Of a DNA stretch of 64,000 nucleotides, positions 5,136-62,013 are shown in pieces. A model generated the notes under the pieces. That model ran no database searches and had not been told where the DNA came from. It saw only the letters and a program-made list of their open reading frames with translations. The DNA lies in sequence record PZ179882.1. One strand, written 5' to 3'. The position numbers were made by a program, and so were the translations under genes. Position 1 is the stretch's first letter; the number at the start of each line of letters is the position of its first letter. Origin of the DNA: a phage.

Positions 5136-5363
5136 TTACTTAATGTTCAGATTACGAACTTCGATTTCGTCTTCATGGGCAAAATCAAACTGTTTGAATT
5201 CTGTGTCACCTTTAAATTTAAAAATCATTGTGAAGAAAGTCAGAACACCAGGTTTTTCTTCACGAACTCCACAGATATCATATTCAATACCATCTACAAC
5301 CAGTTTGTTAGCAGTCAGAGCATTTTTAGCTTTAACGATTTCGTTTTCGATTTTAAATTTCAT
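5136..5363 (-). CDS. Hypothetical protein, 75 aa
   Basis: ORF track; ATG at 5361-5363; preceded by early promoter (5413-5442) and terminator hairpin. Confidence 0.5.
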   Translation of the reverse strand: MKFKIENEIVKAKNALTANKLVVDGIEYDICGVREEKPGVLTFFTMIFKFKGDTEFKQFDFAHEDEIEVRNLNIK

Positions 5364-9054: not shown

Positions 9055-9084
9055 ATAGTACCACGGTCCTTGTAGTATGTAAAC
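9055..9084 (-). promoter_or_regulatory. Early promoter
   Basis: GTTTAC 9084-9079, 18-nt spacer, TGgTACTAT 9063-9055. Confidence 0.5.
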
Positions 9085-9100
9085 TAGTTTATGAAATTTT

Positions 9101-9658
9101 TTAGATGGAAAGATACCATCCGTTGTAGTTGCTTTTTCGCACTACCTTACGAAGGTCTTCTCTATCACCAATGAACTTCGGAGTGTACTGGATGACACCT
9201 GGATGAATTTCTTTAGTGTTGAATATAATTATACAGTCCGCGACTTGATGATTCAGAATGGGCCCTAGATTTATTCCAGAACCATATGGATACTCTCCGC
9301 TGCATCCTGTTGTTACCGAAATCCAACGTGAGTCAGTTTGATGGGTTTTGACTTCTACGCGAAGTCCGCAGTATCTTGGGTGCGCCAATACATCCCATGC
9401 ATATGTATACGGGTCATTAACATCCTCTTGGCCTTTGTTAACATACCCGCTCAGCCAATCTGCTACAAAAAACTCTGCATACACAGCGATACGGCATCTT
9501 TCGATGACTTCTGCTTTATCCTGATTAGGATTTTGTTTTAAAGAGTATCTTGCTGTATCAGCAATTTTGACCTTCATTTCACTAGTCAAATCATTGTTCG
9601 ATAGGGTAAATGTCGGAATCTGAAATAGTCTCTGTAAACCTGGATTCGTTTTCTGCAT
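9101..9658 (-). CDS. denB: Endonuclease IV DenB (cytosine-DNA specific)
   Basis: 185 aa, same length and position (adjacent to rIIB) as T4 denB; sequence recognised. Confidence 0.85.
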   Translation of the reverse strand: MQKTNPGLQRLFQIPTFTLSNNDLTSEMKVKIADTARYSLKQNPNQDKAEVIERCRIAVYAEFFVADWLSGYVNKGQEDVNDPYTYAWDVLAHPRYCGLRVEVKTHQTDSRWISVTTGCSGEYPYGSGINLGPILNHQVADCIIIFNTKEIHPGVIQYTPKFIGDREDLRKVVRKSNYNGWYLSI

Positions 9659-9744
9659 TAAACTTTCCTTTTACGTCGGAATCACTGATATTCATATAAT
9701 AAATCATAGTTTCTCTTAAAACAAAAGGGCCGAAGCCCTTTACT

Positions 9745-9939
9745 TTATTTGAATTGTGCAATTCTTTTTTCTAAACAATCTGCATAAGATTTCATTGAGA
9801 TGAACTGTGAAAGCAGTAATTCTTGCTCAACTGCATTAACCGTTGAAAACTTTTCACTTTCTAAAAATTTGCTCAATGCATTAATTTTGAGCATTAATTG
9901 ATCGTATTCTTCTTTTACTCGTGCTTGATAACCTAACAT
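9745..9939 (-). CDS. Hypothetical protein, 64 aa, coiled-coil-like
   Basis: ORF track; between rIIB and denB, flanked by GC hairpins. Confidence 0.5.
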   Translation of the reverse strand: MLGYQARVKEEYDQLMLKINALSKFLESEKFSTVNAVEQELLLSQFISMKSYADCLEKRIAQFK

Positions 9940-9953
9940 AATTTTCCTTAGTT

Positions 9954-9969
9954 AAGGGCCGAAGCCCTT
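9954..9969 (-). other. Intercistronic C(UUCG)G-type hairpin overlapping rIIB stop
   Basis: aagggc-cgaa-gccctt on + strand, i.e. UUCG tetraloop on the mRNA. Confidence 0.5.
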
Positions 9970-10906
9970 ATTTGAATTGTTCAGTAACGTCTTCAACTAC
10001 TTCGTATTGACAGGTACGCATTTTAGCATCGTTGTAATCAATCGGAATTGATACTACATCGCGAGGATGAACTTTAACTTTTACAACTCGGCTGGTTGAA
10101 CTGCCAAAGTGACGAATATAAGATTTAGAACACACATGCAGACCACGAGAACAAGTTTGTGTATCATCGTCATTCACACGAGTGCGTGGCATTTTAACTA
10201 CTTTACCAGGACTGTTATCAAAAGTATTTGAATGACAGTCAAAGTAATTACTGCGAACTACTTTCCAAGCATAGAAGTAACCATCTTCTGTAATTTCAAT
10301 ATCGTTTGCTACCAAGAAATCAAAGAGTCGAGATACCGCTTTTTGGCTCGGGTTTTCCAACAGATTTTCCAAGAACGGAAAATAAAATTCAAAGTTTTCG
10401 CCTTTTTCCATCGAATCGAGAATACGATCAACTAAACCAGACCGCAATTCAATGTTTTGATAGAACAAGCTTCCACCTTCAATTCGAACATCACCCGAAA
10501 TATATTTTTCAACAGCGCGACGAACGTTAATTTTTTGTGCCGCTTCTTCCAATTTATCTGCAACAAGCAGGTTAAGAATTTCCTGGAAGTTTGAATGAGT
10601 ATTAGGAGTTGCGTTATAAGTTACGCCGTCAACAGTAATTGAAATGAATTTTTTAGATGCATTCCAAATAATGTCAGATTTAGCAACTGGAGCAATAACT
10701 ACATCGCTATTAACTTTAACTGTAATATCACCGCTAATAGTAACTTTAGAGCGTTTAGCTTCTTCAGCATTTTTCAAAACACGACGGATTGTGTCAACCG
10801 ATACACCTTGCCAATCAGCCAATTCCTGTTGGGTGTAATTACCACTTGAATACAGCTTAACAATTTCAGCTTGTTCGTTTTTGGTCAGGCATTTAATATT
10901 GTACAT
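9968..10906 (-). CDS. rIIB: rIIB protein
   Basis: 312 aa; MYNIKCLTKNEQAEIVKLYSSGNYTQQELADWQGVS matches remembered T4 rIIB; ATG verified 10904-10906. Confidence 0.92.
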   Translation of the reverse strand: MYNIKCLTKNEQAEIVKLYSSGNYTQQELADWQGVSVDTIRRVLKNAEEAKRSKVTISGDITVKVNSDVVIAPVAKSDIIWNASKKFISITVDGVTYNATPNTHSNFQEILNLLVADKLEEAAQKINVRRAVEKYISGDVRIEGGSLFYQNIELRSGLVDRILDSMEKGENFEFYFPFLENLLENPSQKAVSRLFDFLVANDIEITEDGYFYAWKVVRSNYFDCHSNTFDNSPGKVVKMPRTRVNDDDTQTCSRGLHVCSKSYIRHFGSSTSRVVKVKVHPRDVVSIPIDYNDAKMRTCQYEVVEDVTEQFK

Positions 10907-13105: not shown

Positions 13106-13309
13106 TTAATTCATATTACGCTTAATAACTTCAGCAACTTCTAGTAATTCATCTTTAGTTGCAGTGTCGGATTGAATTTTATCTCTAATATCTTTAAAGC
13201 GGTTTTTAAATTCTTCGGCTTCTCCCATATCGAAAAAGCGTTGAATGATTCTATATTCTCGATGAACTGCTTTATCAAAAAGTTCTAAATTTACTTTATA
13301 TGATTTCAT
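13106..13309 (-). CDS. Hypothetical protein (rIIA.1-like), 67 aa
   Basis: ORF track; ATG verified 13307-13309; downstream of promoter cassette 13335-13364. Confidence 0.5.
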
Positions 13310-13334: not shown

Positions 13335-13364
13335 ATTATACCACATCCTTGTGGTAAAGTAAAC
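13335..13364 (-). promoter_or_regulatory. Early promoter cassette with spacer hairpin, fused to gene 39 stop codon
   Basis: 30-mer attataccacatccttgtggtaaagtaaac: minus strand TAG-overlapping GTTTAC, hairpin ccacaAGGAtgtgg in spacer, TGgTATAAT. Identical copy at 56871-56900. Confidence 0.6.
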
Positions 13365-15181
13365 TACTGGCTCATCCATTCTTTACGAAGGTCAGCATTA
13401 TCTCCCATGAGCATTTCAAAAAGCTCTTTCCAGTTCTCAGGAAGTTTAACAACATCATATACTGGATTTTGAATCATCTCACGATATTCAGATTTTTCCA
13501 AAGAGCCAAGTCCTTTAATATAACGGATGCTATGTTTAGGTAGAGCATCTTTAGCACTCTCATATTCAGCGACTGTATAAAACCATTCTTGTTTTTTACC
13601 AATCTGTGCGATGATTACAGGAGTTTTGACAAAGCGAATTCGTCCTTGCTCAAACAGTTCTGGCCAATTACTAAAAAATCCAAGCAGAGAAGGATAAATG
13701 CTTCCTAGACCATCATGGTCAGCATCAGTCATAATAGCAATATTATGATAATTCAAGTTTTCAGCTTTTTCACCGAGAACTAATCCAGTGATTGCGCAAA
13801 TATCAAACAGTTCTTTGTTTTTAAGCATGTCAGCATATGACATACCCCAACTGTTGAGAACTTTACCACGTAATGGATAACCACCGTGAAGTTCTTTATC
13901 ACGAACATCAATAAGATATCCGATAGCCGAATCACCCTCAGTCAAGAAAAGAGTAGTATCAGCATCTTTACCACAAAGATTCGCTTTAATATGTTTATGA
14001 ACCTTAGCTTTAGAAGCCTTTTTAGCTGCTTTAGTTTCTGCTGCTTTTTCTGCCGCTAATTTACGAGCCAAAGCAGCTTCAATAATCGGCATTAGAATTG
14101 CTTCATTATTTAGAATAGCACGTGAAATCTTTTTAGCATCAAGTTGAATATGACTACGGATTTCACCAAATGGAGAAGTCAAACGCTCTTTAGTTTGAGA
14201 ATCAAATCGCATGTTTTTCATATCACGGACAAACATAACGATAGTCAAACATTCTTTAACGCGTGCTTTAGTCACATCAATTTTGAACTTACGTTTGATT
14301 TGTGGAATAAGGTCTTCACAAATATCATCCATAACACAGTCAATGTGATGGCCACCATTCTTAGTGTGAATGTTATTCACATAAGTTAATTGACGAAAAC
14401 CATCCGGTGAACGACCAACCGCAATAGAGCAATTTTCTTGTTCTTGAACGATAGCATGCTCATCATATTGGCGTGCATATTTCTTAAAATTGCCCTGAAC
14501 CTTTTTACCATTAAAGGTAAATTGAATATCAGGATAAACTACTGCAAGTGTCTGGAGACGATCTAGTGTAATGTCAAGATAAACTTGGGACAGCTCATTA
14601 GTTTCAAATGACATAAAATCAGGAATGAAAGTAACACGAGTTCCTTTCCATTTTCCTGGAATAGTTTCCCATGATTTATTTTCCATGCCATTTGAACAAC
14701 GAACTACAATATTATTTTGACCATCACCAGTTTCACCGACAAACATCACAGAAAAAATGTTTGTCAAACTAGAACCAACACCATTCATACCGCCAGTGAC
14801 GCGTTCTTTATCATCACCAAAGTTACCACCTGCTTTTGGAATAGTCCATGCAGCAACAGGACCAGGAATTTCTTCACCAGTAGGTGTTTTAACCATCGCC
14901 TGTGGAATACCGCGACCGTTATCTTCAACTGTTACTTGATTGTTTTTAATAGTAACATTAATTTTATTTGCGAATTTAAACTTAGTACGAATACCTTCAT
15001 CTACTGAGTTATCGATAATTTCATCAATAAGCTTAACAAGACCAGGTACATACTGAACACTTTCCCATTTACCAAACAGAAAGCGCTCATGCATTTCATT
15101 AGCGGAAGAGCCAATGTACATGCCGCTACGCTTTTTGATATGTTCAATATCGCTCAGAATTTTAATTTCATTCTTAATCAT
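13364..15181 (-). CDS. 39: DNA topoisomerase II large subunit gp39 (GyrB-like, ATPase plus TOPRIM in one ORF)
   Basis: Track ORF starts at GTG 15182-15184; ATG at 15179-15181 gives MIKNEIKILSDIEHIKKRSGMYIGSS as in T4 gp39. One continuous 605-codon frame including the TOPRIM motif IMTDADHDG that T4 encodes in separate gene 60. Confidence 0.92.
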   Translation of the reverse strand: MIKNEIKILSDIEHIKKRSGMYIGSSANEMHERFLFGKWESVQYVPGLVKLIDEIIDNSVDEGIRTKFKFANKINVTIKNNQVTVEDNGRGIPQAMVKTPTGEEIPGPVAAWTIPKAGGNFGDDKERVTGGMNGVGSSLTNIFSVMFVGETGDGQNNIVVRCSNGMENKSWETIPGKWKGTRVTFIPDFMSFETNELSQVYLDITLDRLQTLAVVYPDIQFTFNGKKVQGNFKKYARQYDEHAIVQEQENCSIAVGRSPDGFRQLTYVNNIHTKNGGHHIDCVMDDICEDLIPQIKRKFKIDVTKARVKECLTIVMFVRDMKNMRFDSQTKERLTSPFGEIRSHIQLDAKKISRAILNNEAILMPIIEAALARKLAAEKAAETKAAKKASKAKVHKHIKANLCGKDADTTLFLTEGDSAIGYLIDVRDKELHGGYPLRGKVLNSWGMSYADMLKNKELFDICAITGLVLGEKAENLNYHNIAIMTDADHDGLGSIYPSLLGFFSNWPELFEQGRIRFVKTPVIIAQIGKKQEWFYTVAEYESAKDALPKHSIRYIKGLGSLEKSEYREMIQNPVYDVVKLPENWKELFEMLMGDNADLRKEWMSQ

Positions 15182-15208
15182 CACTTATCCTCGTTTGGTT
15201 TCGGGAAT

Positions 15209-15233
15209 ATTATACTCCGGTAATCATAAAGCT
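15209..15233 (-). promoter_or_regulatory. Putative MotA-dependent middle promoter upstream of gene 39
   Basis: Minus strand aGCTTTA (MotA-box-like) 12 nt upstream of TATAAT (15214-15209). Confidence 0.35.
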
Positions 15234-15250
15234 AAAGGCCCGAAGGCCTT

Positions 15251-15511
15251 TTATTTAAAACGAATAGTTGAATCCTTAAAGAACAGCCCAGAACATACTG
15301 TTCCTTCTACTTTCTGCCCAGTAGGTCCAATAGCACGAAATCCAGTATGTTGGAAATCATTTTCAGAACAACCGAACCAATTATATCCAGTGATTTCAAT
15401 ATTAGTAAAACCACTTGAAGACAAAACTTTGGTTGCATTATCAGCATCAGTACATCCTACTAAAGACACTGCTAATACTAATGCTGCAATAGAACGATTA
15501 ATATATTTCAT
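15251..15511 (-). CDS. Putative lipoprotein, 86 aa
   Basis: Signal peptide with lipobox LVGC (MKYINRSIAALVLAVSLVGCTD); ATG verified 15509-15511. Confidence 0.5.
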   Translation of the reverse strand: MKYINRSIAALVLAVSLVGCTDADNATKVLSSSGFTNIEITGYNWFGCSENDFQHTGFRAIGPTGQKVEGTVCSGLFFKDSTIRFK

Positions 15512-17046: not shown

Positions 17047-17076
17047 ATTATACTCTGGTCCCAAGAGTTTGTAAAC
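17047..17076 (-). promoter_or_regulatory. Early promoter between motB paralogs
   Basis: GTTTAC 17076-17071, 18-nt spacer, TATAAT 17052-17047. Confidence 0.5.
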
Positions 17077-18154: not shown

Positions 18155-18184
18155 ATAATACCACAACTAACCGAGGAAGTAAAT
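18155..18184 (-). promoter_or_regulatory. Early promoter downstream of dexA
   Basis: ATTTAC 18184-18179, 18-nt spacer, TGgTATTAT 18163-18155. Confidence 0.45.
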
Positions 18185-28906: not shown

Positions 28907-28924
28907 TTTCTTTTCTCCGCGATT

Positions 28925-28967
28925 AGCTGATAGAATTACTATAACACAACTCTATCAGCTTGTAAAC
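28925..28967 (-). promoter_or_regulatory. Early promoter with 10-bp inverted repeat straddling the -10
   Basis: GTTTAC 28967-28962, TATAGT 28943-28938; IR agctgataga (28925-28934) / tctatcagct (28951-28960). Confidence 0.55.
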
Positions 28968-28969
28968 TA

Positions 28970-29212
28970 CTATTTTACTAGCATCAATAACTGTTTCTCT
29001 AACTTGACGATTTTACGAAAGTATCTTTTGCATTGGCGAATCTGTCGCTTCGTAGGGCGCACAGCAAACTTAATAAATTCCACTCGACCAAATGGAGGAC
29101 TTTCTTCTGCTGGAATATCTAACACCAATTCCCACGTATCTGCAACAAGTGCTTTGAATTGAGTATTTTTCCTGACATTATACGGAGTAGGTTTAAATAA
29201 AACAATATGCAT
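28970..29212 (-). CDS. Hypothetical protein, ~80 aa
   Basis: Track ORF 28970..29254 trimmed to ATG 29210-29212 (GAGGA SD) so that it abuts the dmd stop instead of overlapping dmd by 40 nt. Confidence 0.45.
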   Translation of the reverse strand: MHIVLFKPTPYNVRKNTQFKALVADTWELVLDIPAEESPPFGRVEFIKFAVRPTKRQIRQCKRYFRKIVKLEKQLLMLVK

Positions 29213-29396: not shown

Positions 29397-29416
29397 AACA
29401 ATCTCCTCATTTAACC

Positions 29417-29455
29417 GACAAGACTACTATACCATAGTCTTGTCAGCTTGTAAAC
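29417..29455 (-). promoter_or_regulatory. Early promoter of dmd with 10-bp inverted repeat; -35 fused to gene 41 stop
   Basis: GTTTAC 29455-29450 (C shared with TAG stop of 41), TGgTATAGT 29434-29426; IR gacaagacta (29417-29426) / tagtcttgtc (29435-29444). Confidence 0.55.
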
Positions 29456-30882
29456 TAAAATTTTAATTCATTCGCTAAAGCATCTAACTGGGCTCGGGCT
29501 GATTCGTTTCTTTGATAGCGATTCTGCTCAGCCTGAATCTGCTGTGAACCTGCTACTTCGTTCACTTCAGTTGGAGTAGAATCTTGTTCAATTTCTACCC
29601 ATTTCTGATTTCCTTTTTGAACACCCATCAAAAACTTATTCCATTTATTCTTATCACCATATCGTGATTTGATTTGCTTAATTAGTTGTTGTTCAGCAGT
29701 TGCTAACTCCTCGGTTTCAATGACCGCAAGCATAAAATCGGCTGTTGCTGGAAGACCGGCAGATTCTGCAATATCGCTCATGTTAACATCAGAAGAATCC
29801 CAAGCTTGTTTACCAACCTGTGCTGCGGTCCAAAGAACAGTTTCAGTTTCAACAGCCAGAGCACGCAATTCCTCTGCGATGGCTTTAACAGTTGTGTAAC
29901 TATTTTCTGAATACACTCTGATACGGCAAGATTTACAAATACCAAGATAGTCGACAATAATGATTGTTGGAACAAAATTCTTCTTGAGCTTTAATTCGTT
30001 TAAAAGAGATCGAAATGTATTAGCGTCTGCTCCACCAGTAGGATATTGCTTAACGATTAAACGACCGAGAGTAGATTTCTCACGCCATTTTTCCATTTTT
30101 CCTTTATACTCAGCATAAGAAATATGCCCATCATCAATGTCATCAAGAGAAACATCAAGCATATTAGCGTCAATACGTTTAGCACAGACTTCTTCTGCCA
30201 TTTCCATGGAAATGTAAAGAACATTATGTCCGAGCTGCAAATAATCTGCTGCCAATGAACAAAGTCCTAATGATTTACCAACGTTAACACCAGCCATTAA
30301 AACGTTCAGTGTTCCTGTCTCAGCTCCGCCTTTAGTAATTTTATTTAGAATTTTGAGTTTAAATGGAACCTTACGAGCTTTATTCATATAAGATAGCCAG
30401 CGTGCTTCGTAGTCATCCATCCAATCATGACCAACGTAGTTATCAAATGAAATTGATAATGCTTGGCGCATGATGTCAGGAATAGCACCTACATCTGGCA
30501 TTTTCTTATTTCGTTTTTCCGGAGGAAGCTCAGCATTAGTTTGAATTTCGATTATTTTAGACGTAGCATTAAACATCGCCCTTTGTTGAACATATTTTTC
30601 TGTTTCTTTTACTAACCAACTGTGGTCTTCTGGAGAATCGGCTAGTTTTGAAATAAGTGTTTTTACACCAGAATATTCTGTTTCAGTAAATGAACTATTT
30701 TCTAATGCAACATTTAACGCATTAATAGATGGAACGCTATGGTACTCATTAACATGAGATTTAATTAATTTGAACGTATTTTTAGCTGGACCACTTTCAA
30801 AATATTCTGAATCCATATATGGCCAAACTTTTGAAAAATAAGCTTGATCAAATATGAGATGAGAAAGAATAATTTCTACCAC
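29455..30882 (-). CDS. 41: Replicative DNA helicase gp41 (DnaB-like)
   Basis: 475 aa as T4 gp41; MVEIILSHLIFDQAYFSKVWPYMDSEYF recognised; initiates at GTG 30880-30882 with AAGGAG SD. Confidence 0.92.
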   Translation of the reverse strand: MVEIILSHLIFDQAYFSKVWPYMDSEYFESGPAKNTFKLIKSHVNEYHSVPSINALNVALENSSFTETEYSGVKTLISKLADSPEDHSWLVKETEKYVQQRAMFNATSKIIEIQTNAELPPEKRNKKMPDVGAIPDIMRQALSISFDNYVGHDWMDDYEARWLSYMNKARKVPFKLKILNKITKGGAETGTLNVLMAGVNVGKSLGLCSLAADYLQLGHNVLYISMEMAEEVCAKRIDANMLDVSLDDIDDGHISYAEYKGKMEKWREKSTLGRLIVKQYPTGGADANTFRSLLNELKLKKNFVPTIIIVDYLGICKSCRIRVYSENSYTTVKAIAEELRALAVETETVLWTAAQVGKQAWDSSDVNMSDIAESAGLPATADFMLAVIETEELATAEQQLIKQIKSRYGDKNKWNKFLMGVQKGNQKWVEIEQDSTPTEVNEVAGSQQIQAEQNRYQRNESARAQLDALANELKF

Positions 30883-38025: not shown

Positions 38026-38042
38026 TATATTATACTCCAAAT

Positions 38043-38060
38043 AAGGGGCCGAAGCCCCTT
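38043..38060 (-). other. Intercistronic C(UUCG)G-type hairpin between regA and 43
   Basis: aaggggc-cgaa-gcccctt. Confidence 0.5.
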
Positions 38061-38062
38061 GC

Positions 38063-38431
38063 TTAATTACCAATCGTATATTTGGGAACGAGTTTCCATT
38101 CATGTTTTTGTTTAAAAGAAATAACTCGGAAGTTATTAGTTAAATCTTTCATAAAAGTTCTTTGACCAGGAACGATTTCAATCAGTCCCCAATCTTCTAA
38201 CAGCCATGCAATCGAATCACGACGAACTTCATCTTCTTCTGTCATTTCAACTTGACGGCCATCCATACGAAGCATTTCTTTAAAATGAACGATATAGTAT
38301 AGTCCTTTTTTCTGGAGAATATGACAGGATTGATACAGAACTTTATCTTTATTATTAGCAATTCCCATGCGAGTCAAGGTTTCTTTAACTTTCAGAAAAT
38401 CTTCAGGTTTTTTAAGAGTAATTTCAATCAT
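38063..38431 (-). CDS. regA: Translational repressor RegA
   Basis: 122 aa as T4 RegA; MIEITLKKPEDFLKVKETLTRMGIANNKDK recognised. Confidence 0.88.
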   Translation of the reverse strand: MIEITLKKPEDFLKVKETLTRMGIANNKDKVLYQSCHILQKKGLYYIVHFKEMLRMDGRQVEMTEEDEVRRDSIAWLLEDWGLIEIVPGQRTFMKDLTNNFRVISFKQKHEWKLVPKYTIGN

Positions 38432-39957: not shown

Positions 39958-39991
39958 AATTTCCTCATTCAAGTTTTAGTGTAAATTATAA

Positions 39992-40005
39992 AGGGCCGAA
40001 GCCCT
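39992..40005 (-). other. Intercistronic C(UUCG)G-type hairpin between 45 and 44
   Basis: agggc-cgaa-gccct. Confidence 0.5.
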
Positions 40006-40008
40006 CTA

Positions 40009-40695
40009 TTAAAAGTCGTGGGTAGAATCGGCTTCAAGAGCTACTACATAATTCGCGTGTTCACCTTCAAATTTAGCAGCACCTTGTTTACCTTTTGCCC
40101 AGAGCAGAAGTTTATAATTTCCTGGTTGCATTTTCATATTTGCCATATTGATAATGAAATTAAATGTATTTTCACCATCATAATCACCAAGAGTCAAAGA
40201 ATATTTAACACGGGTCAAAGCAGAATCTTCTACTTTATTAAAACCGTTAATTACGATTTTACCTTCTTTTACTGTGATAGCAATTGTATCAATCTGCAGA
40301 CCACGAGATACACGCAACAGTTGTTGAAGGTCTTCAGCTTTAATTTCAGTAACAACAGATGCTACCGGGAATGGAATTGGTTTATTAGGAGCAACTACTG
40401 TACTCGGATCGGCTGCTGGCCAAAAAATTGTTGAGCGGGCATCAGCAATTTTAATATTTCCATCTTCTGACTGGGAAATTTCTGCATCATCATTAACTAG
40501 AGACAGAATACCGAGAAAACCGTTCAAATCGTAAATTGCTACATCAAAATCAATAACGTCAGAAATATTTGCTTCCGCATAAGTTGTACCATTAACTGCG
40601 CGAGTCATAATAAATTGACCGGATTTAAGCATAATACCAGAGTTAATAGTAGCGAAATTTTTAAGCAGAGCAGTAGTATCTTTAGACAGTTTCAT
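40009..40695 (-). CDS. 45: Sliding clamp gp45
   Basis: 228 aa; MKLSKDTTALLKNFATINSGIMLKSGQFIMTRAVNGTTYAEANISD matches remembered T4 gp45. Confidence 0.92.
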   Translation of the reverse strand: MKLSKDTTALLKNFATINSGIMLKSGQFIMTRAVNGTTYAEANISDVIDFDVAIYDLNGFLGILSLVNDDAEISQSEDGNIKIADARSTIFWPAADPSTVVAPNKPIPFPVASVVTEIKAEDLQQLLRVSRGLQIDTIAITVKEGKIVINGFNKVEDSALTRVKYSLTLGDYDGENTFNFIINMANMKMQPGNYKLLLWAKGKQGAAKFEGEHANYVVALEADSTHDF

Positions 40696-44676: not shown

Positions 44677-44699
44677 TATATCAAACTCCGTATAAAGCT

Positions 44700-44717
44700 A
44701 AAGGGCCGAAGCCCTTT
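44700..44717 (-). other. C(UUCG)G-type hairpin at alpha-gt stop
   Basis: aaagggc-cgaa-gcccttt. Confidence 0.5.
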
Positions 44718-45918
44718 ATTTTGTAATAATGTCAAACTGTTCTTTAAAGCAGAAGCTTGAATCTTGATGCTGATACAAAAATTCATAAGCTTTTTCGCGT
44801 TCGCGATCATAAAGAGCTCGGTCAGATGACAGTTCTTTAATACGTTCAAATGTTGATTCCATGTCATTTTCATCAAACCAAACGATACCGCTATCGTGTG
44901 AAATTAATGGAGTATTATCAACACGGAATTTTAAATTTTCGCCAGTAGATTTCCAAAATACTGGAATTGTTCCACATGCACCAAGCTCGAGATGAGTGTA
45001 TTCTAAAGAACGCTGTAGATATTTTTTGTCCAACTTACTCAGCTGATAACCAAATCCGGATTTACTCATGCGTTCAAGCATTTCGCTATTTACATAACGG
45101 TCGAGAATTTGCGTTGGCAAATTAGGAGCAATTTTAATTTGGTCTACTTGATGAAGACGATAATACTCGTATGGAATTCCTTTTTCTTTAATAGGAATGA
45201 ATGCTGGAGAACGTTCCAGACCTTCCATAATAGTACTTAGTCCTGCAGGTTTAAGATGTTTTTCATGAAAATCAAACATCTGATAAAAGCCTTTCCATGT
45301 AGTAGTACGACCAATCCAACGGTTGATATTCATGTTAATTTCAGAAACATCTTTCCAGTAGGTTGATCGAACCTTCGCAATATCCATAGGAGGCTGAAAG
45401 TTATATACGGTCGGTGCTTCTTCAATATCATCAAACAGAGAAACAGTTTCCGGATACCATTCTTTCATCAAAACTTTATTAAAGTCACCATTATCAGAAT
45501 GGCTAAAAATAACATCAGCTCGACGAACAGTTTCTTCTAATCCCAAATTTCGACGCAAAGAAAGAGAAGAATGGTCATGCTGATAAACTACAACACGAAC
45601 CGAAGGTTTAATGTTATCAATAATTTTTTTATAGTTATTAATGGTGTCTTCTTCTACTGAAGTAGCAGGAACTGAATTGATAATTAAAATATCGCAATCA
45701 TTTACCAGTTTAAGTGTTTTATCGTATTCTTTTGCCAATAAAACCGGAATTGAAAATGACTTATAATCATGTGCGCAATTACGAGTAAATGATTTATCTT
45801 TAGCATAAACCAAAGTTACTTCATGACCATTTTTAATAAACCAATCACGTTGCTCAAGAGAAAATTTAGTTACACCGCAACCTTCAAGACCTCGAGCCAT
45901 AAAAATACATACTTTCAT
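44716..45918 (-). CDS. agt: DNA alpha-glucosyltransferase
   Basis: 400 aa; ICIFMARGLEGCGVTKFSLEQRDWFIKNGHEVTLVYAKDKSFTR and C-terminus ...SSFCFKEQFDIITK match remembered T4 alpha-gt. Confidence 0.92.
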   Translation of the reverse strand: MKVCIFMARGLEGCGVTKFSLEQRDWFIKNGHEVTLVYAKDKSFTRNCAHDYKSFSIPVLLAKEYDKTLKLVNDCDILIINSVPATSVEEDTINNYKKIIDNIKPSVRVVVYQHDHSSLSLRRNLGLEETVRRADVIFSHSDNGDFNKVLMKEWYPETVSLFDDIEEAPTVYNFQPPMDIAKVRSTYWKDVSEINMNINRWIGRTTTWKGFYQMFDFHEKHLKPAGLSTIMEGLERSPAFIPIKEKGIPYEYYRLHQVDQIKIAPNLPTQILDRYVNSEMLERMSKSGFGYQLSKLDKKYLQRSLEYTHLELGACGTIPVFWKSTGENLKFRVDNTPLISHDSGIVWFDENDMESTFERIKELSSDRALYDREREKAYEFLYQHQDSSFCFKEQFDIITK

Positions 45919-48301: not shown

Positions 48302-48353
48302 ACATTATCCTCAATTACGTTAAAATTTTATTATCCAAAAAGGGCCGAAGCCC

Positions 48354-48554
48354 TTAGCTAAACTTTTTGGCACCCTTCCAGCCTTCGTACATCATTGCGG
48401 CTGATATTAATATTGCCCCTGAACAGCTTGAATATTTGTGATTCCAAAACCAGTTCAGAAAAACTTCGTCATCAATACCTTGGGCTATCATATTTTCAAA
48501 GAACTGACGACGAGCTTCGGCAATTCGTTGTGATAATTTAGATTCAGGATTCAT
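48354..48554 (-). CDS. Hypothetical protein, 66 aa
   Basis: ORF track; preceded by GGGCC hairpin. Confidence 0.5.
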   Translation of the reverse strand: MNPESKLSQRIAEARRQFFENMIAQGIDDEVFLNWFWNHKYSSCSGAILISAAMMYEGWKGAKKFS

Positions 48555-49958: not shown

Positions 49959-50429
49959 TTAATCATGTTTCCACACCCCATCGGTATTTGACCAAAGTCG
50001 CTGATTATCTGATCCTCGCCACAGCTTTTTGGTCGGAAGATTTTTCTCATACTTCCCATCAATAATAACATCAACATATTTAAGCATTTCTAGTTGTTTA
50101 ATATCTTCAAATTTATATCCTGTCCACAACCAAATGCTTTTATTGGGATAAAGATTTTTTACTGTTTGAACAATGCAATGAACAACATCTCGGTTATCAG
50201 GATAGAGAGGGTCTCCTCCAGTTATAGTTAATCCTTCTATATAATCATTATTCAAACATTCAATTAATTGTTCTAGTGTTTCACCAGTGAATGGAACGCC
50301 ATTTCTAGCGTTCCATGTTGATTTATTATAACACCCTTCACATTTATGCAAACAACCTGTAACGAAAAGAACGACCCTGCATCCAGGGCCATTCACAAAA
50401 TCGCAAGGATAAAATCTATCATAATTCAT
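49959..50429 (-). CDS. nrdG: Anaerobic ribonucleotide reductase activating protein NrdG (radical SAM)
   Basis: 156 aa; CxxxCxxC cluster (CLHKCEGC); ATG verified. Confidence 0.88.
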   Translation of the reverse strand: MNYDRFYPCDFVNGPGCRVVLFVTGCLHKCEGCYNKSTWNARNGVPFTGETLEQLIECLNNDYIEGLTITGGDPLYPDNRDVVHCIVQTVKNLYPNKSIWLWTGYKFEDIKQLEMLKYVDVIIDGKYEKNLPTKKLWRGSDNQRLWSNTDGVWKHD

Positions 50430-52243
50430 TGGTGTTTAACCCTATGCATGATTTCTTTATTTTTTCCAAGATTAAATCCGCGCTCGTTCGGATTTCCCAA
50501 ATAGCCACATGTTCTTCTTATTGTGTTCATCTTTTTAGGATCAGTTTCTCCACAAATAGAACAAACAAATCCGTTTTCAGTAGGAGTCATTTCATGGGTA
50601 CTTCCACACGTAAAACATTTATCTACTGGCATATTAACACCAAAATAATCTAAATGTTGTGCAGCATAATCCCATACAGCCTCAAGACCTTTTAGATTAT
50701 TTTTCATATCAGGAAGTTCAACATAAGAAATGTGACCGCCTGTCGCGATGAAATGATATGGGGCTTCGCGAGAAATCTTTTCAAACGGAGTAATATTTTC
50801 TTCTACTGAAACATGGAAACTGTTAGTGTACCAGCCTTTATCGGTAACATCTTTTACACTTCCATATTTTTCGGTATCAAGTTTACAGAAGCGATAGCAC
50901 AGGTTTTCAGCAGGAGTAGAATACAAGCTAAAAGCAAAACCAGTTCTTTCAGTCCACTGCTTAAGATGAGCATTCATTTTAGTTAAAATTTCTTGTCCAA
51001 TATCACGACCGACAAGAATATTCAATTCGTGAATACCAATGTATCCTAAGGACACTGAACTTCTACCGTTTTTAAATAACTCAATTATATCGTCATCGGG
51101 TTTAAGACGAACCCCGAATGCACCTTCTTGATAAAGAATAGGAGCAACAGTAGCTTTAACTCCTTTTAAGGAACTAATTCTACACATCAATGCTTCAAAA
51201 CATAAATTCATTCGCTCATTGAACAATTCAGTAAATTTCTGTTCATTGAACTGTGTTCCAATATAAGAATCTAACGCAATACGAGGAAGATTCAGTGTTA
51301 CAACACCAAGATTATTACGTCCATCAAGAATTTCATTACCAGTCGAATCTTTCCATACGCCCAAGAAACTACGGCAACCCATTGGAGAAACAGGAATAGA
51401 TGAACCAGTGATAGCTTTATTGTTCTTAGCTGAAATAATATCAGGATACATTCTTTTGCTTGCACACTCTAGAGCAAGCTGCTTAATATCATAGTTCGGA
51501 TCGTCTTTATAAAGATTAACACCCTCTTCAACGAACATAACAAGTTTAGGGAAAATAGGAGTTATCCCATCACGACCGAGACCTTTAATACGATTTTTCA
51601 GAATTGCTTTCTGAATCATTCGTTCAGTCCAGTCAGTTCCAGTACCAAATGTAATTGTTACAAAAGGCGTTTGTCCATTTGAACTAAAGAGAGTATTTAC
51701 TTCATATTCATAAGCTTGGAACGCATCGTATACGTCTTTTTCTGTTTTAGATTGGGCATAATTCAATGCATCAGCGATTTGCCATTTTTCTGCGTCCTCA
51801 ATATGTTTTGCATAGGTGCGTTTAACATAAGGAGAAAGTACTTTGTCTACATTCGCAAAAGTCGTTCCGCCGTATTGATGGGAAGCAACTTGCGCAGTAA
51901 TTTGCGCCATAATTGCAGTAGCAACGCCAATTGATTTAGGAGTTTCAATCTGTGCATTACCAAGCTTAAATCCGTTTTCAAGCATTCCTTTTAAATCTAC
52001 TAAACAGCAATTAGTAAATGGAAGAGCAGGGGAATAATCAATATCGTGGAAATGGATAATTCCGCTTTCATGCGCTTTCATAATAAAAGACGGGACCATA
52101 TTTTTGGCAATGTGTTTAGACACAATACCAGCCATAAGGTCCCGTTGAGTTGGAAAAACACGAGAATCTTTATTAGCATTCTCGTTTAAAAGGTCTTTAT
52201 TAGTTTTATGAATCAATCCTTCAATTTCTTTTTCAATTGTCAT
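50426..52243 (-). CDS. nrdD: Anaerobic ribonucleoside-triphosphate reductase NrdD (uninterrupted)
   Basis: 605 aa in one frame; C-terminal glycyl-radical motif RRTCGYLG and Zn ribbon CFTCGS...CSIC. Confidence 0.92.
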   Translation of the reverse strand: MTIEKEIEGLIHKTNKDLLNENANKDSRVFPTQRDLMAGIVSKHIAKNMVPSFIMKAHESGIIHFHDIDYSPALPFTNCCLVDLKGMLENGFKLGNAQIETPKSIGVATAIMAQITAQVASHQYGGTTFANVDKVLSPYVKRTYAKHIEDAEKWQIADALNYAQSKTEKDVYDAFQAYEYEVNTLFSSNGQTPFVTITFGTGTDWTERMIQKAILKNRIKGLGRDGITPIFPKLVMFVEEGVNLYKDDPNYDIKQLALECASKRMYPDIISAKNNKAITGSSIPVSPMGCRSFLGVWKDSTGNEILDGRNNLGVVTLNLPRIALDSYIGTQFNEQKFTELFNERMNLCFEALMCRISSLKGVKATVAPILYQEGAFGVRLKPDDDIIELFKNGRSSVSLGYIGIHELNILVGRDIGQEILTKMNAHLKQWTERTGFAFSLYSTPAENLCYRFCKLDTEKYGSVKDVTDKGWYTNSFHVSVEENITPFEKISREAPYHFIATGGHISYVELPDMKNNLKGLEAVWDYAAQHLDYFGVNMPVDKCFTCGSTHEMTPTENGFVCSICGETDPKKMNTIRRTCGYLGNPNERGFNLGKNKEIMHRVKHQ

Positions 52244-52713
52244 TTTAAACTCTTTCTAAGCTGCTTCTTAAATGAAGCTATTAACTGTGTTTTAGTATCA
52301 GATTCATTATATTCAAATCCTCTTTGAAGCATCTCGGCCATCATTTCCTCTTTTCCTAAACGAGAAAATTCCTTTGATTTATCTCCAACAAAGTTAGGGT
52401 GAATATTATTTTGGGTGTAATCGGATTTTAAATAAGTAAGTAAATTTTCTAACCATTCAAGATAATCAACACCTTGTCCCTTTAAGCCAGAACGATTAAA
52501 TTTATGCTTCATTTGACCTTCTGCGGCATTGCAGAGATTACAAAGCAATCCACGTATCTTTCCTGCTTTTGGTCCATTTAATTCATGGTCATGATCAAGA
52601 TGATTAGCTTGAACATCAGGATTTAGTTCTCGTTGGCAAATTAAGCATTTACCGTTTTGTGCATTATAAAATTTTTGTTTTTCTTCTTTGTATAATTTGC
52701 CAGTCAATAACAT
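52240..52713 (-). CDS. 49: Endonuclease VII gp49 (Holliday junction resolvase)
   Basis: 157 aa; MLLTGKLYKEEKQKFYNAQNGKCLICQRELNPDVQANHLDHDHELNG matches remembered T4 endo VII. Confidence 0.92.
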   Translation of the reverse strand: MLLTGKLYKEEKQKFYNAQNGKCLICQRELNPDVQANHLDHDHELNGPKAGKIRGLLCNLCNAAEGQMKHKFNRSGLKGQGVDYLEWLENLLTYLKSDYTQNNIHPNFVGDKSKEFSRLGKEEMMAEMLQRGFEYNESDTKTQLIASFKKQLRKSLK

Positions 52714-52755
52714 AATAAAACCCTTACCTTAAATAGATAAGGGTATTTATTATTT

Positions 52756-52932
52756 TTAAGTATTGTAAAACATTCGATGCAATCGTTTATACTGTCGAAT
52801 CATCTTTTTAGTAGGACGAGAATAGGTTCCTACGCAAGTGGTCATATGAGGGTCCGTAGAATGTCCTTTAATAAAAAGTTTCCAAACCTTACCGCCATTT
52901 AACTTTTCAGTATAAACCAATTCGGTTTTCAT
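52756..52932 (-). CDS. Small ORF (58 aa) whose C-terminus duplicates the pin C-terminus; not in ORF track
   Basis: Hand translation MKTELVYTEKLNGGKVWKLFIKGHSTDPHMTTCVGTYSRPTKKMIRQYKRLHRMFYNT; last 16 codons lie in repeat 52758-52801. Confidence 0.35.
   Translation of the reverse strand: MKTELVYTEKLNGGKVWKLFIKGHSTDPHMTTCVGTYSRPTKKMIRQYKRLHRMFYNT
52758..52801. repeat. Repeat R1 (copy of pin 3' coding end)
   Basis: 44 bp, about 5 mismatches versus 52972-53015. Confidence 0.7.
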
Positions 52933-53577: not shown

Positions 53578-53748
53578 TTAACCCCGAAGCTTATTAAGTT
53601 CTTCATAATCAATCCAGGATTCTAATCCTGATGGCAAATCAGATTCAATTTCCCAAAGAAGCTCTTCAATTTTCTGAAGACGATCTAGTTCTTCGGCTGG
53701 AATAGTAACCATTGACGGAGCTCGTGATACATTAATATCGTAAATCAT
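53578..53748 (-). CDS. Small acidic protein, 56 aa, not in ORF track
   Basis: Hand translation MIYDINVSRAPSMVTIPAEELDRLQKIEELLWEIESDLPSGLESWIDYEELNKLRG; abuts neighbouring genes. Confidence 0.35.
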   Translation of the reverse strand: MIYDINVSRAPSMVTIPAEELDRLQKIEELLWEIESDLPSGLESWIDYEELNKLRG

Positions 53749-53750
53749 AT

Positions 53751-53966
53751 TTACCCCAATTTAACCATACAATCGCCGTATTTCCACTTAGAAATAGACT
53801 TTTCACCATTAGAATAATAAACTTCGAGTTTAGCACGATTATTTTTAATTTGAATAACCTTGGCTGTCATCAAAGTTCCATACCCATAATAAACTGCAAC
53901 TTCATCACCTACATATACCGCGCTTCCGCGGTAATCATGAATATAGTCAGTTCCTTCGAGCATCAT
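53751..53966 (-). CDS. Hypothetical protein, 71 aa
   Basis: ORF track; ATGA coupling with nrdC. Confidence 0.5.
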   Translation of the reverse strand: MMLEGTDYIHDYRGSAVYVGDEVAVYYGYGTLMTAKVIQIKNNRAKLEVYYSNGEKSISKWKYGDCMVKLG

Positions 53967-54862: not shown

Positions 54863-55788
54863 TTCAATACCTCAATAGCATTACGTAAACCATTTGCTTT
54901 GGCGGTTAAAGCCTTAAGAACTTTAGTATGATCTTCAATCTGTTTTTCAACTTCAATTAAGCGTGTATTAAGATATTCGCGTTCTTCGCTCAGATTATCA
55001 GCCTTTTCTGCTTTAGGTTCTTTTACAACTGGCTTATACGTATTAGGGTTCTTCAATTTAATTAGAATGCGTGAACTGTATAACATTGAACCATTATCTT
55101 CGGTTTCATCATACATTTCCACTACGTCCATCATCTCCACCATCGTGCAGAGTTTATAAGACAACGAACGAATAGTTTTGTTGTGCTTATTAATTTCTCT
55201 AGCTGTCATGGTGCCGAGATTACGTGAGTAATAATAAGGAACCTGGATATTAATTAATACTGATGAACCACCTGGCTTGTGTGTTACTTCATCAGCAATA
55301 ACCCAGTCCTTAACATGAACTGTATTTGTACGGTCATCGCCCGCGGTAAATAGTTTACGAGCATGCTTAAAAAGCATATTCACTTGGTCATTGAATTGAC
55401 AGGCGAATTTATCAGCAAATTTAGTTTCAGGAATGGTAGATAACCAATCAGCCAAATGGGTCTTTTTAACATCGTTAACAATAGTAAATTCAACCAAATC
55501 GGTTATAGATGTCGCAGATTTAATGAAGCTCGGCTTCATAAAGTTTTTAATGTTATCACTAGCTACAGTAGAAGATAACAGACGAGAACGTTTAAACCAT
55601 TGAAGCAAATTGCCTAACGAATGAGAATAAGCGTTTTGAGTATCTTTACAGATATGATTTTCCTGGCCAACATATTGAAGGAAATCACGAAGAATATTAT
55701 TGATTACTGCTCTGTGCCCGATCTGATAATTACGATGTTTAGTAATAAGACTGTCAAAATAATCAATATAATGTTTACGAGTTTTCAT
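54859..55788 (-). CDS. Member A of four-gene paralog array, C-terminal coiled coil (309 aa)
   Basis: Shares SRLLS and LF+xxRKL/ASRL-type motifs with the three following ORFs; C-terminal heptad-like segment. Confidence 0.55.
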   Translation of the reverse strand: MKTRKHYIDYFDSLITKHRNYQIGHRAVINNILRDFLQYVGQENHICKDTQNAYSHSLGNLLQWFKRSRLLSSTVASDNIKNFMKPSFIKSATSITDLVEFTIVNDVKKTHLADWLSTIPETKFADKFACQFNDQVNMLFKHARKLFTAGDDRTNTVHVKDWVIADEVTHKPGGSSVLINIQVPYYYSRNLGTMTAREINKHNKTIRSLSYKLCTMVEMMDVVEMYDETEDNGSMLYSSRILIKLKNPNTYKPVVKEPKAEKADNLSEEREYLNTRLIEVEKQIEDHTKVLKALTAKANGLRNAIEVLK

Positions 55789-55840
55789 GTTCTTCTCACT
55801 TGGTTAATGATTTATACTCCGAGCCATCCTTGGCTTTAAA

Positions 55841-56842
55841 TTACTTAATTAACTGTAAAGCTTGTTCAAGACGATCCAGGCGATTAACAGATTCTTCCCA
55901 AATCCTTTTAGCCTGCTCATATTCTTTCTGCGCTTTATTAGAAATTTCTAGAGCTTCTTTATAAGCTTTTTCTAGTGCAATAACTTCTGGACGAATTTCT
56001 ACCGGTTCAGGCGAATCATCAAGACATTCCATTAGTTCCTCAAGGGTAGTTTCTTCTTTAGGAGTATTCACAATTTCATCACATTTTTGTTGGTAAATTT
56101 CTTTATCAGTCGGTAAATAAGCACATTTCACTTCACGAAGACTAACTACAATTTTATATCCTTCCCAACCGCATATACTCTTAAAAGGATACGTATGAAT
56201 ATTTTCTACTGTTTCCATACAAAGTAATGCAGTCTCTAATTGACGAGTTATATCACTAGCAATTGAGAAAAATTTATTAATGTTCTTTTGATTAGCTTCT
56301 GGCGTAAAAAATCCATAATTCACAAAAATAGCTGCTTTATTTTTATCAAGTTCATATTCTTTTATGATAATCATATCAGAAGCCCAAGGATGAATTTGAC
56401 GATAATCACCATAGCATAATTTAGAAGCTGATTTTAGAATTTGCTTTTTGAAAAGTCTGAAATTACTAATCCAACGACGAGTAAAAATATTCTCAGGGTC
56501 TTCTTTAATATTAAGATGATAAGAATTAACATCACCGAACCAATTATATCCTACTACATCTTTAGTTCGTTTAATTTCTTTCCCAAATTTACCAAGAATA
56601 TCCTGATTAACTAAATATGAAAGAAGACGAGAACCTTTAAAGGTTTCCTTAATATCACTTTTATCTTCGCGACTAGAAATTTTATGAACTTCATGAATAA
56701 ATTTGCTGGAAGAAACAATGCTTACATCAATATTATTGAGCCATTGATTGATAATGGAAATAACGTTATTCTGACTAGACATAGGTTTAACTTTATCATC
56801 AATAACACTATTGAATGATTTGATATATTCGTTACGAGTCAT
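55841..56842 (-). CDS. Member B of paralog array (333 aa)
   Basis: Track ORF start falls inside promoter -10 at 56871; ATG 56840-56842 with GAGGAG SD; motif FRLFKKQILKSASKL aligns with member C. Confidence 0.55.
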   Translation of the reverse strand: MTRNEYIKSFNSVIDDKVKPMSSQNNVISIINQWLNNIDVSIVSSSKFIHEVHKISSREDKSDIKETFKGSRLLSYLVNQDILGKFGKEIKRTKDVVGYNWFGDVNSYHLNIKEDPENIFTRRWISNFRLFKKQILKSASKLCYGDYRQIHPWASDMIIIKEYELDKNKAAIFVNYGFFTPEANQKNINKFFSIASDITRQLETALLCMETVENIHTYPFKSICGWEGYKIVVSLREVKCAYLPTDKEIYQQKCDEIVNTPKEETTLEELMECLDDSPEPVEIRPEVIALEKAYKEALEISNKAQKEYEQAKRIWEESVNRLDRLEQALQLIK

Positions 56843-56870: not shown

Positions 56871-56900
56871 ATTATACCACATCCTTGTGGTAAAGTAAAC
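56871..56900 (-). promoter_or_regulatory. Early promoter cassette (identical twin of 13335-13364) inside paralog array
   Basis: Same 30-mer; -35 overlaps TAG stop of paralog C; drives paralog B. Confidence 0.6.
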
Positions 56901-57922
56901 TAGTTCAGTGCATTTAGTGCATTGTTCAGTTTAGAACGTTGCTTCGTGAGATTTTTGACTTTTTCTTGAGCTTTTTCTAGCGTCTTTTCAGCTTCTAGCA
57001 CTTCATTAGTTGCTTTAACGAGTTCATCATCTACTGCCTTGATAGACTTCTCAATCGCATCTGCATGCCATTTTTCAACAGGTTTAAGACTCGGATTTTC
57101 AATAGGAAGAAAATTCACTTTATTGAATTTCCATGCATCTTTATTACCTGAACTATACATCCAAAATTTAGGATCGTTTGATGAGTAATTGGATAAATTT
57201 AAGTTATCTTGCACTTCCTGCTTTTTCTCTTGTGTGACTTCGTCCTTTCTCAAAAAATCGTATTTAAATGAAACGATCATATCAAGTTCATATGTTGTTG
57301 TATGTTCCCAATTTCGCTCAAAATGAGGTAAAATCTTAGACTGAACAGCGGCAACAACATCCATATACTTAAATGCTTCTGTCAACTGTGATTTAAGGCA
57401 TTCACAAATTGAAAGAGAATTTTTTGTATTAGGTTTAAAGCTAATTCGTGCAGTTCTATTATTTTCTTTTAATGGTCTTACTTCCATCTGAAGAGTATAA
57501 CCATCAAATTTCAGGTTCTTTAAGTTAATGTCAGAACCTTTTAATCGACTAGCCGTCGACAAAATTTGCTTTAATTGTCTACGGAACAGAGCAATAAATC
57601 TCCATTCAATACGATAATGATTTGGATTGAAAAATCCAGATGATAAATCGACCTTACTTTGACCAACGCCTTGAACAAATAGAGGATTTTTATAATCAAT
57701 AGTTTTACAGAAATCGGTGAGCAGCTCACGAGCCGTCATTTGTGTAATATACCCTGCTTTACTAAAATTACGCACCCATTCACTGCTATTCGTATACTTA
57801 AAGTGATGAATAACACGATTAACTTTATCAGGGTCTAAATTATTTTCACACAAAAATGTCATAACATCACGAGTATAACTGGCATTACGAACTATATCTT
57901 CAATTTGAGAACGAGTTTTCAT
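56900..57922 (-). CDS. Member C of paralog array (340 aa)
   Basis: Motif ALFRRQLKQILSTASRLKG; C-terminal coiled coil; stop codon fused to promoter -35. Confidence 0.55.
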   Translation of the reverse strand: MKTRSQIEDIVRNASYTRDVMTFLCENNLDPDKVNRVIHHFKYTNSSEWVRNFSKAGYITQMTARELLTDFCKTIDYKNPLFVQGVGQSKVDLSSGFFNPNHYRIEWRFIALFRRQLKQILSTASRLKGSDINLKNLKFDGYTLQMEVRPLKENNRTARISFKPNTKNSLSICECLKSQLTEAFKYMDVVAAVQSKILPHFERNWEHTTTYELDMIVSFKYDFLRKDEVTQEKKQEVQDNLNLSNYSSNDPKFWMYSSGNKDAWKFNKVNFLPIENPSLKPVEKWHADAIEKSIKAVDDELVKATNEVLEAEKTLEKAQEKVKNLTKQRSKLNNALNALN

Positions 57923-59234: not shown

Positions 59235-59289
59235 AATAATCTCAATTAAAAGGGCTTAGAACCATTATACCATCCTTGGTATAAAGCGG

Positions 59290-61947: not shown

Positions 61948-61983
61948 TTTATTCTCCAATTTCACATTTGTTTTGATAGGGTA

Positions 61984-62013
61984 ATAGTATCACACTACTA
62001 CCCTGCTGTAAAC
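61984..62013 (-). promoter_or_regulatory. Early promoter upstream of P-loop NTPase gene
   Basis: GTTTAC 62013-62008, 18-nt spacer, TGaTACTAT 61992-61984. Confidence 0.5.

Follow-up and report, generated by a model that had tools for sequence, protein, structure and literature searches.

A putative early promoter with a spacer hairpin, repeated at two fixed loci of Tequatrovirus genomes

An identical 30-mer occurs at two distant places in a 64,000-nucleotide stretch of phage DNA (record PZ179882.1, hereafter the window), which raises the question of what the element does and how its two copies came to be the same. The initial annotation had read it as a stop-codon, promoter and hairpin cassette of the promoter-early stem-loop (PeSL) type and had ascribed the identity of the copies to recent recombination. 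We conclude that the two copies, A and B, probably represent a single subfamily of T4-type early promoters of the PeSL class, old and fixed at both loci, in which the hairpin would act on read-through RNA.

Both loci match approximately 500 Tequatrovirus phage genomes, including T4, T2, the RB phages and their relatives, at 90–99% identity by megablast. To judge from its sequence, the window belongs to a Tequatrovirus (T4-like) genome; its early genes are on the minus strand. Gene 39 and rIIA.1 meet at locus A, nrdC.5 and nrdC.4 at locus B (Table 1). Gene 39 is unsplit in the window, and the gene 60/60.1/mobA insertion of T4 is absent. Compared with the 42.9–48.1 kb interval of T4, the window also lacks mobC and the I-TevII intron of nrdD, and a different sequence replaces 49.2/49.3 (window positions 50400–52800 and 53579–53962). 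Copy B had been placed inside a paralog array, a description that finds no support: nrdC.3, nrdC.4, nrdC.5 and nrdC.6 give no BLASTP match to one another (E ≤ 0.01) and have no common Pfam family. Three of these four genes do have their first codons in common, M(K)TR / ATGAAAACTCGT.

The 30-mer is present at exactly the two reported places, 13335–13364 and 56871–56900, with no other match at three or fewer mismatches in the window, and it was absent from all 100 dinucleotide shuffles. The identity in fact extends over 32 bp on the minus strand, TAGTTTACTTTACCACAAGGATGTGGTATAAT, and ends sharply on both sides, where the flanks are unrelated. Apart from this pair (family D16), the window has no dispersed repeat of 24 nt or more that is 100% identical. 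The next-best early-promoter-like site in the window matches the 32-mer at only 22/32 positions, so the resemblance between copies A and B goes well beyond what the general promoter consensus would demand.

At both loci, the anatomy is as first described: a TAG stop codon overlaps GTTTAC, with which it shares its G, and a 17-bp spacer leads to a -10 element of the form TGgTATAAT. Accordingly, a promoter scan returned TTTACT-17-TATAAT at each locus, with 10/12 matches and a TG before the -10. The spacer hairpin and its AGGA loop are also present, but the stem is longer than had been stated, 7 bp rather than 5. This 7-bp/4-nt hairpin has a predicted free energy of approximately -8.2 kcal/mol as RNA, a value equalled by none of 200 shuffles. 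Its 3' arm is formed by the extended -10 together with the two leading bases of the -10 hexamer. An AT-rich UP element is absent upstream of the -35 at A and B because coding sequence, of gene 39 or nrdC.5, abuts the -35; family members in other contexts do have aaaaagtt at this position. Two other readings of the palindrome were set aside. An antisense promoter on the plus strand (TGTGG-TAAAGT) uses bases that are not kept in other family members, and a cruciform or endonuclease VII target was considered unlikely for a 7-bp stem.

Table 1. Positions in the window of the cassettes, neighbouring genes and related hairpins.
Feature	Position	Strand	Remarks
Gene 39, DNA topoisomerase II large subunit	13364–15184	-	Stop codon fused to -35 of copy A
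Cassette copy A	13335–13366	-	Gene 39 TAG 13366–13364; -35 GTTTAC 13364–13359; -10 hexamer 13340–13335
Copy A spacer hairpin	13339–13356	-	TACCACA / AGGA loop / TGTGGTA; predicted fold
rIIA.1	13106–13309	-	First gene downstream of copy A; Pfam T4_RIIA1, E = 1.4e-33; T4 annotation
nrdC.5 (DUF7235)	56900–57922	-	Upstream of copy B
Cassette copy B	56871–56902	-	nrdC.5 TAG 56902–56900; GTTTAC 56900–56895; -10 at 56876–56871
Copy B spacer hairpin	56875–56892	-	Same as copy A's; predicted fold
nrdC.4	55841–56842	-	Downstream of copy B
Copy C, putative middle promoter PnrdC.7	59264–59288	-	MotA box cGCTTTA 59288–59282; 12-bp spacer; TGgTATAAT, -10 at 59269–59264; predicted start ~59257
Copy C hairpin	59283–59266	-	TATACCA-AGGA-TGGTATA
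Copy D, weak promoter-like, nrdC.4/nrdC.3 junction	55811–55840	-	TTTAAA 55840–55835; 18-bp spacer; TATAAA 55816–55811
Copy D hairpin	55835–55822	-	AGCCA-AGGA-TGGCT
Counterparts of the G2540-3 deletion	55777–55795 and 57911–57922
Putative diverged relative of the cassette	9055–9084	-	GTTTACatactaCAAGGAccgtggTACTAT
Early promoters with -10 in the hairpin loop	28914–28977, 29402–29465, 61973–62013, 17047–17076, 18155–18184
Dispersed GGGCCGAAGCCC hairpins (families D4 and D5)	9717–9746, 9954–9981, 15227–15256, 38036–38065, 39983–40012, 44693–44722, 48332–48361		GGGCUUCGGCCC on the minus strand

Copy A is the putative early promoter of the rIIA.1-rIIA unit, with a predicted start at ~13328, and copy B that of nrdC.4, with a predicted start at ~56864. 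Each copy begins right at the stop codon that ends the gene upstream and would drive the next small gene; host sigma-70 RNA polymerase uses promoters of this type as soon as infection has begun. The SA20RB and fPS-90 records annotate copy B as an early promoter by similarity. An early promoter upstream of rIIA.1 has reportedly been mapped, and Miller et al. 2003 and Daegelen and Brody 1990 can be expected to list or map these promoters. Sequence and conservation speak strongly for the promoter reading, with which the by-similarity annotations agree, and A and B would probably be active as promoters in this phage.

T4 early promoters belong to the 'UP/-35/TGn/-10' class (Hinton 2010, PMC2988021). 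Copies A and B resemble them in having GTTTAC, a 17-bp spacer, a gTGG extended -10 and TATAAT directly upstream of early genes on the early strand; T4 itself has the same sequences, and the consensus given in the SA20RB record matches. They differ in the missing UP element, in the fusion of the -35 to a stop codon and in the spacer hairpin, which most early promoters lack. The assignment to the PeSL class proved right, as the cassette joins a stop codon to a sigma-70-type early promoter whose -35 and -10 enclose a stem-loop, an arrangement that constitutes one of five PeSL subclasses (Arbiol et al. 2010, PMC2839356). A later study of the T4/PST pair reported PeSLs with TTTACW-N17-TAYWAT promoters (Comeau et al. 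2014, PMC4122927). Like PeSLs, which favour hyperplastic regions and precede small ORFs whose function is unknown, A and B are repeated and lie beside small accessory ORFs or plastic loci, B in the nrdC.x region and A before rIIA.1, and in other genera members of the wider family precede small ORFs after alt, 41, 43 and motB, gene 43 being one such plastic locus. The likeness has its limits: the stem of A and B is AU-rich with a 4-nt loop, whereas the terminator form tested for phi1 is G(n)-loop-C(n), and the PST stem-loops are described just upstream of the promoter (PMC4122927), whereas the A/B hairpin lies between -35 and -10. In addition, A and B are 43.5 kb apart and thus cannot form the mini-circles described for PeSLs. 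The element is already known in kind, sits at loci that T4 itself carries and is largely ordinary.

How the copies came to be identical can be addressed by comparing the two loci across the genus. A 50-bp locus A query matched 499 records by megablast and was covered to at least 80% in 498 of them; an 81-bp locus B query matched 506, with the same coverage in 485. T4 is identical to the window at locus A (T4 positions 2429–2460) and has a single A>G difference at locus B (TTTGCC in T4, TTTACC in the window). Overall, the cassettes are 99–100% identical between the window and T4, against 83–89% for the flanking coding sequence. The proposed recent recombination is unsupported as stated, with both loci present in approximately 500 Tequatrovirus records and T4 only one base off. 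Given an ancient, near-identical pair and a one-base difference from T4, the perfect identity in the window needs only one transition or one very short conversion. Copies A and B are old and fixed throughout the genus, where purifying selection probably keeps them nearly identical; their perfect identity in this phage comes down to the single A/G position, changed by point mutation or very short conversion.

The A/G position nevertheless allows recent recombination or gene conversion between the loci to be weighed as the cause of the identity in this phage, an origin that we regard as rather unlikely. At locus A, the variable position is always A. At locus B, A is confined to about a tenth of the records: a second place for the locus A query, which marks a fully identical pair because megablast needs a 28-base word, occurs in at most 54 of 499 records, and 42 exact 81-mers were found. 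Likewise, G occupies locus B in 5/5 IMG/VR Tequatrovirus contigs and 4/5 metagenome contigs. The locus B A variant stands on at least two flank haplotypes, and the haplotype of the window also occurs with G, SA20RB being identical to the window over 170 bp around locus B but for the A/G position. Such a sharing of both states between flank haplotypes is a four-gamete pattern, which fits repeated short conversion from locus A. However, the states differ by one base, so that recurrent transition explains the data equally well, and T4-like phages recombine enough over evolutionary time to shuffle sites 14 bp apart. Any conversion tract could draw on no more than 11 bp and 20 bp of homology at its flanks. 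Reciprocal exchange between direct repeats 43.5 kb apart would delete essential genes, so the A/B pair is ruled out as a route to viable shuffling. The data are consistent with recurrent mutation as well as with very short conversion from locus A, and recent recombination is not needed. A mosaic boundary at the cassettes was also considered and rejected, since the identity profile of the window against T4 shows the cassettes as conservation peaks, and the sole strongly diverged block (54935–55680) begins within nrdC.3, away from them. This block, the central and C-terminal part of nrdC.3, has 50–70% DNA identity to T4; the first 100 nt of the gene and the cassette upstream, copy D, are 94–100% identical.

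If the cassettes took part in gene shuffling, gene content might change at them. The initial annotation had allowed that a 30-mer both ubiquitous and unrelated to gene-content breakpoints would speak against its reading, and this holds in half: the element is ubiquitous at loci fixed in the genus and lies off the within-genus breakpoints, but it coincides with gene-content breakpoints between genera. Within Tequatrovirus, no gene-content difference was found at the cassettes themselves. For the two natural deletions examined next to copy B, the junctions fall outside the cassettes. Phage G2540-3 (MK327944.1) lacks nrdC.5, copy B, nrdC.4 and copy D, and its junction (9530–9548) falls in the 12-nt ATGAAAACTCGT common to the starts of nrdC.5 and nrdC.3. 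The metagenome contig UMED01029746.1 (~5180–5260) lacks nrdC.4 and copy D, with a junction in the 8-nt ACTCGTAA at the nrdC.4/nrdC.3 starts; copy B and the first nrdC.4 codons are fused to nrdC.3, so that copy B would drive nrdC.3, apparently a natural promoter swap. Both junctions are thus at gene starts, 30–50 nt downstream of cassettes. Between genera, the cassette is found at the gene-content differences 39|rIIA.1, 41|sp, alt|alt.-3 and 43|ORF. At the first of these, the Tequatrovirus order is gene 39, cassette, rIIA.1. In other genera, gene 39 is followed by an unrelated hairpin and two additional small ORFs ahead of rIIA.1 and rIIA, and rIIA.1 has no promoter immediately in front of it. 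This between-genus pattern fits the modular picture at the level of module boundaries; it does not imply that the cassette is a crossover site.

Two degenerate copies of the cassette had been reported in addition to A and B. Both exist, but copy C, reported at 59264–59290, is by its sequence a MotA-box middle promoter and not a decayed early one. T4 middle promoters carry a MotA box, (a/t)(a/t)(a/t)TGCTTtA, separated by 12 ± 1 bp from a strong -10, and copy C fits this architecture with aacCGCTTTA, 12 bp and then TGgTATAAT. PnrdC.7 is listed among the identified T4 middle promoters with a start site at 53325, which is exactly the position 7 nt after the -10 in the T4 ortholog of copy C, and the fPS-90 record labels copy C a 'predicted middle promoter'. 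Its sequence thus identifies copy C as the ortholog of the mapped T4 PnrdC.7, with a MotA box. Copy C shares its hairpin type with the early promoters A and B; in this respect it differs from the PmSL described for phage nt-1 (Comeau 2014, PMC4122927), which it otherwise resembles in being a middle promoter with a hairpin. Copy D is weakly promoter-like, has only 8 bp in common with copy B and lies in a region 100% conserved with T4. Copies C and D are kept in all Tequatrovirus sequences examined that retain the respective junction.

The window contains further hairpins associated with early genes. Several other early promoters have long hairpins whose arms flank the -10, leaving the -10 in the loop, with folding z-scores down to -7.1; two of them (28914–28977 and 29402–29465, family D8) are 72% identical over 64 nt. 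These constitute a PeSL subclass different from copies A and B. On the minus strand, a site at 9055–9084 has CAAGGA in the same position as the cassette, a looser 6-bp stem and a 7-nt loop, and looks like a diverged relative. The dispersed hairpins of families D4 and D5 carry a UUCG-type tetraloop between A/T runs; they resemble the stable CUUCGG hairpins known for decades between T4 cistrons, and look like the real terminators of the early region. Rfam returned no family at its gathering score anywhere in the window.

The same hairpin promoter was recovered in several other T4-like genera when IMG/VR and metagenome contigs were scanned with patterns that left part of the element free. One family-bearing contig is 170,523 bp long, with a gp39 78% identical. 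By comparison of flanking ORFs with the T4 genome (tblastn), family members were assigned to the junctions of alt with alt.-3, of gene 41 with sp (dmd and 61.4 being absent), of motB with cef and of gene 43 with small lipoprotein-like ORFs that have no T4 homolog, and to a position upstream of trna.4; some genomes have two or three copies. A 14-mer hairpin search of IMG/VR gave mostly chance hits among the matches listed, of which only those in promoter context were kept, and most of the 106 IMG/VR matches to GTTTAC-N9-AGGA-N5-TATAAT were unrelated sequences.

Across the family, the -10 hexamer varies (TATAAT, TACTAT, TATTAT, TATGAT, TACCAT, TATATT), as do the four bases after GTTTAC, and the CCACA/TGTGG arms remain complementary; conservation of the core is partly due to ascertainment, since the searches fixed parts of the sequence. 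One variant (L281) has a compensated C-G to T-A stem change, giving TCACA/TGTGA. In a set of 13 distinct hairpins, pairing holds in 92% of cells, and changes on both sides are found in three pairs; these figures overstate independence because the set was assembled by hand and the search patterns fixed sequence. Conservation is looser at the outer two stem pairs, with a G.U pair in T4 and a C.A mismatch in fPS-90. When the loop was left free in the search, all members in T4-identifiable contexts (alt, 41, 43, motB, trna.4) had AGGA or CGGA, and a TGGA loop occurred in one further context whose flanks have no T4 homolog; GGGA is also found in the family. In three other contexts, one of which precedes a distant homolog of gene 32, the loop reads ATAG, GATA or GTAA. 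Among 241 distinct GTTTAC-N18-TAnnnT sites in all the sequences analysed, in-register 5-bp spacer hairpins were found only in this family, which thus looks like one cassette lineage and not a general property of early promoters.

What, then, might the hairpin do? It lies upstream of the start of its own promoter and so would be transcribed only in read-through RNA from gene 39 or nrdC.5. In such RNA, it would delimit the upstream message at its 3' end, by acting as a weak attenuator, by stabilising that end or by providing a processing site, and a role as an RNA boundary element in read-through transcripts is the most likely function. Like intrinsic terminators and the intercistronic hairpins of T4, it stands a few bases past a stop codon; unlike intrinsic terminators, it has neither a G+C-rich stem nor a U-tract. 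With a short AU-rich stem containing 3/7 G-C pairs, it is a poor intrinsic terminator. The tails after the hairpins are TAATTAATTG and TAATGTTCTT; a terminator scan left copy A unflagged and gave a marginal result for copy B, which is weakly terminator-like because of its tail TAATGTTCTT.

A comparison with other genera bears on this function. All other T4-like genera examined have a hairpin of unrelated sequence just past the gene 39 stop codon, without a GTTTAC promoter, which suggests that a post-stop RNA hairpin is a conserved requirement. In Tequatrovirus, this hairpin would have been merged with a promoter by making its 5' arm, TACCACA, complementary to the extended -10 arm (TGTGG-TA), a complementarity that would since have been kept. 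The hairpins of the other genera, located in the first 50 nt after the stop, are 7–12 bp long, with lineage-specific sequences in which pairing is kept, and run straight into the Shine-Dalgarno sequence of a small ORF. The spacer hairpin is also independent of promoter type, being present in the MotA-dependent middle promoter PnrdC.7. A more specific proposal holds that selection acts on the 18-nt hairpin UACCACA-NGGA-UGUGGUA itself, as an RNA element encoded together with the extended -10 of early and middle promoters across enterobacterial T4-like phages; in read-through transcripts it would set boundaries, for instance by S1-independent RegB cleavage at GG/AU in the loop or by stabilising 3' ends. 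We advance this proposal only tentatively and think it unlikely.

Other functions for the hairpin, or none, have to be weighed against a boundary role. The loop could be a site for the RegB endoribonuclease, whose cut at GG/AU in read-through early RNA would separate the messages. RegB cleaves GGAG/U within intergenic stretches of early RNAs and can dispense with S1 if GGA is unpaired and the fourth base is constrained (Uzan and Miller 2010, PMC3014915). The GGAU of A and B is intergenic in the early transcript, and in the predicted fold GGA lies in the loop with the next U as the first base of the stem; an NGGA loop is found in every member with a T4-identifiable context, in a search that left the loop free, and the loop is kept in copies C and D as well. 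However, A and B lack the A-rich 3' consensus of strong sites and lie outside a Shine-Dalgarno sequence (PMC3014915); their 3' sequence, GGAUGUGGUAU, does not fit GGAGRAYARAA, and conservation of the loop could reflect mere common descent. Cleavage by RegB is therefore, in our estimate, distinctly improbable. We give about the same low weight to the notion that the hairpin has no function and that its 5' arm is spacer sequence which hitch-hikes when a strong promoter is copied. The 3' arm is indeed dictated by promoter function, and the family, as the sole source of in-register hairpins among the 241 sites, resembles a single lineage. Yet the arms are complementary in genera whose core proteins are only 70–80% identical, while the -10 hexamer varies, and both the compensatory change in L281 and the reuse of the hairpin in a middle promoter count against a passive spacer.

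Recognition as DNA would require a different logic, in which the inverted repeat is an operator for a dimeric protein that turns some of the early promoters off or on. The palindrome ACCACA-N4-TGTGGT is perfect and overlaps the extended -10, and its sequence is conserved across genera. The stems of copies C, D and L281 differ yet stay paired, which favours structure over sequence recognition. T4 cytosines are glucosyl-hydroxymethylated, which limits reading through the major groove and counts against an operator, and no candidate protein is known. Of the readings considered, we find this operator highly improbable, and an RNA boundary element remains our preferred function for the hairpin.

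In T4-type genomes, the repeat is a regulatory feature that has been conserved, and not the relic of a recent rearrangement; nor should it serve as a marker of recombination in this phage. The deep conservation of the hairpin and its reuse in a middle promoter provide a modest lead, testable in T4 genetics. If the hairpin acts on read-through RNA, the cassette would be a compact case of a promoter and a transcript-boundary element sharing bases; and if the more specific proposal of a selected RNA element is true, one short sequence would start the downstream message and end the upstream one.
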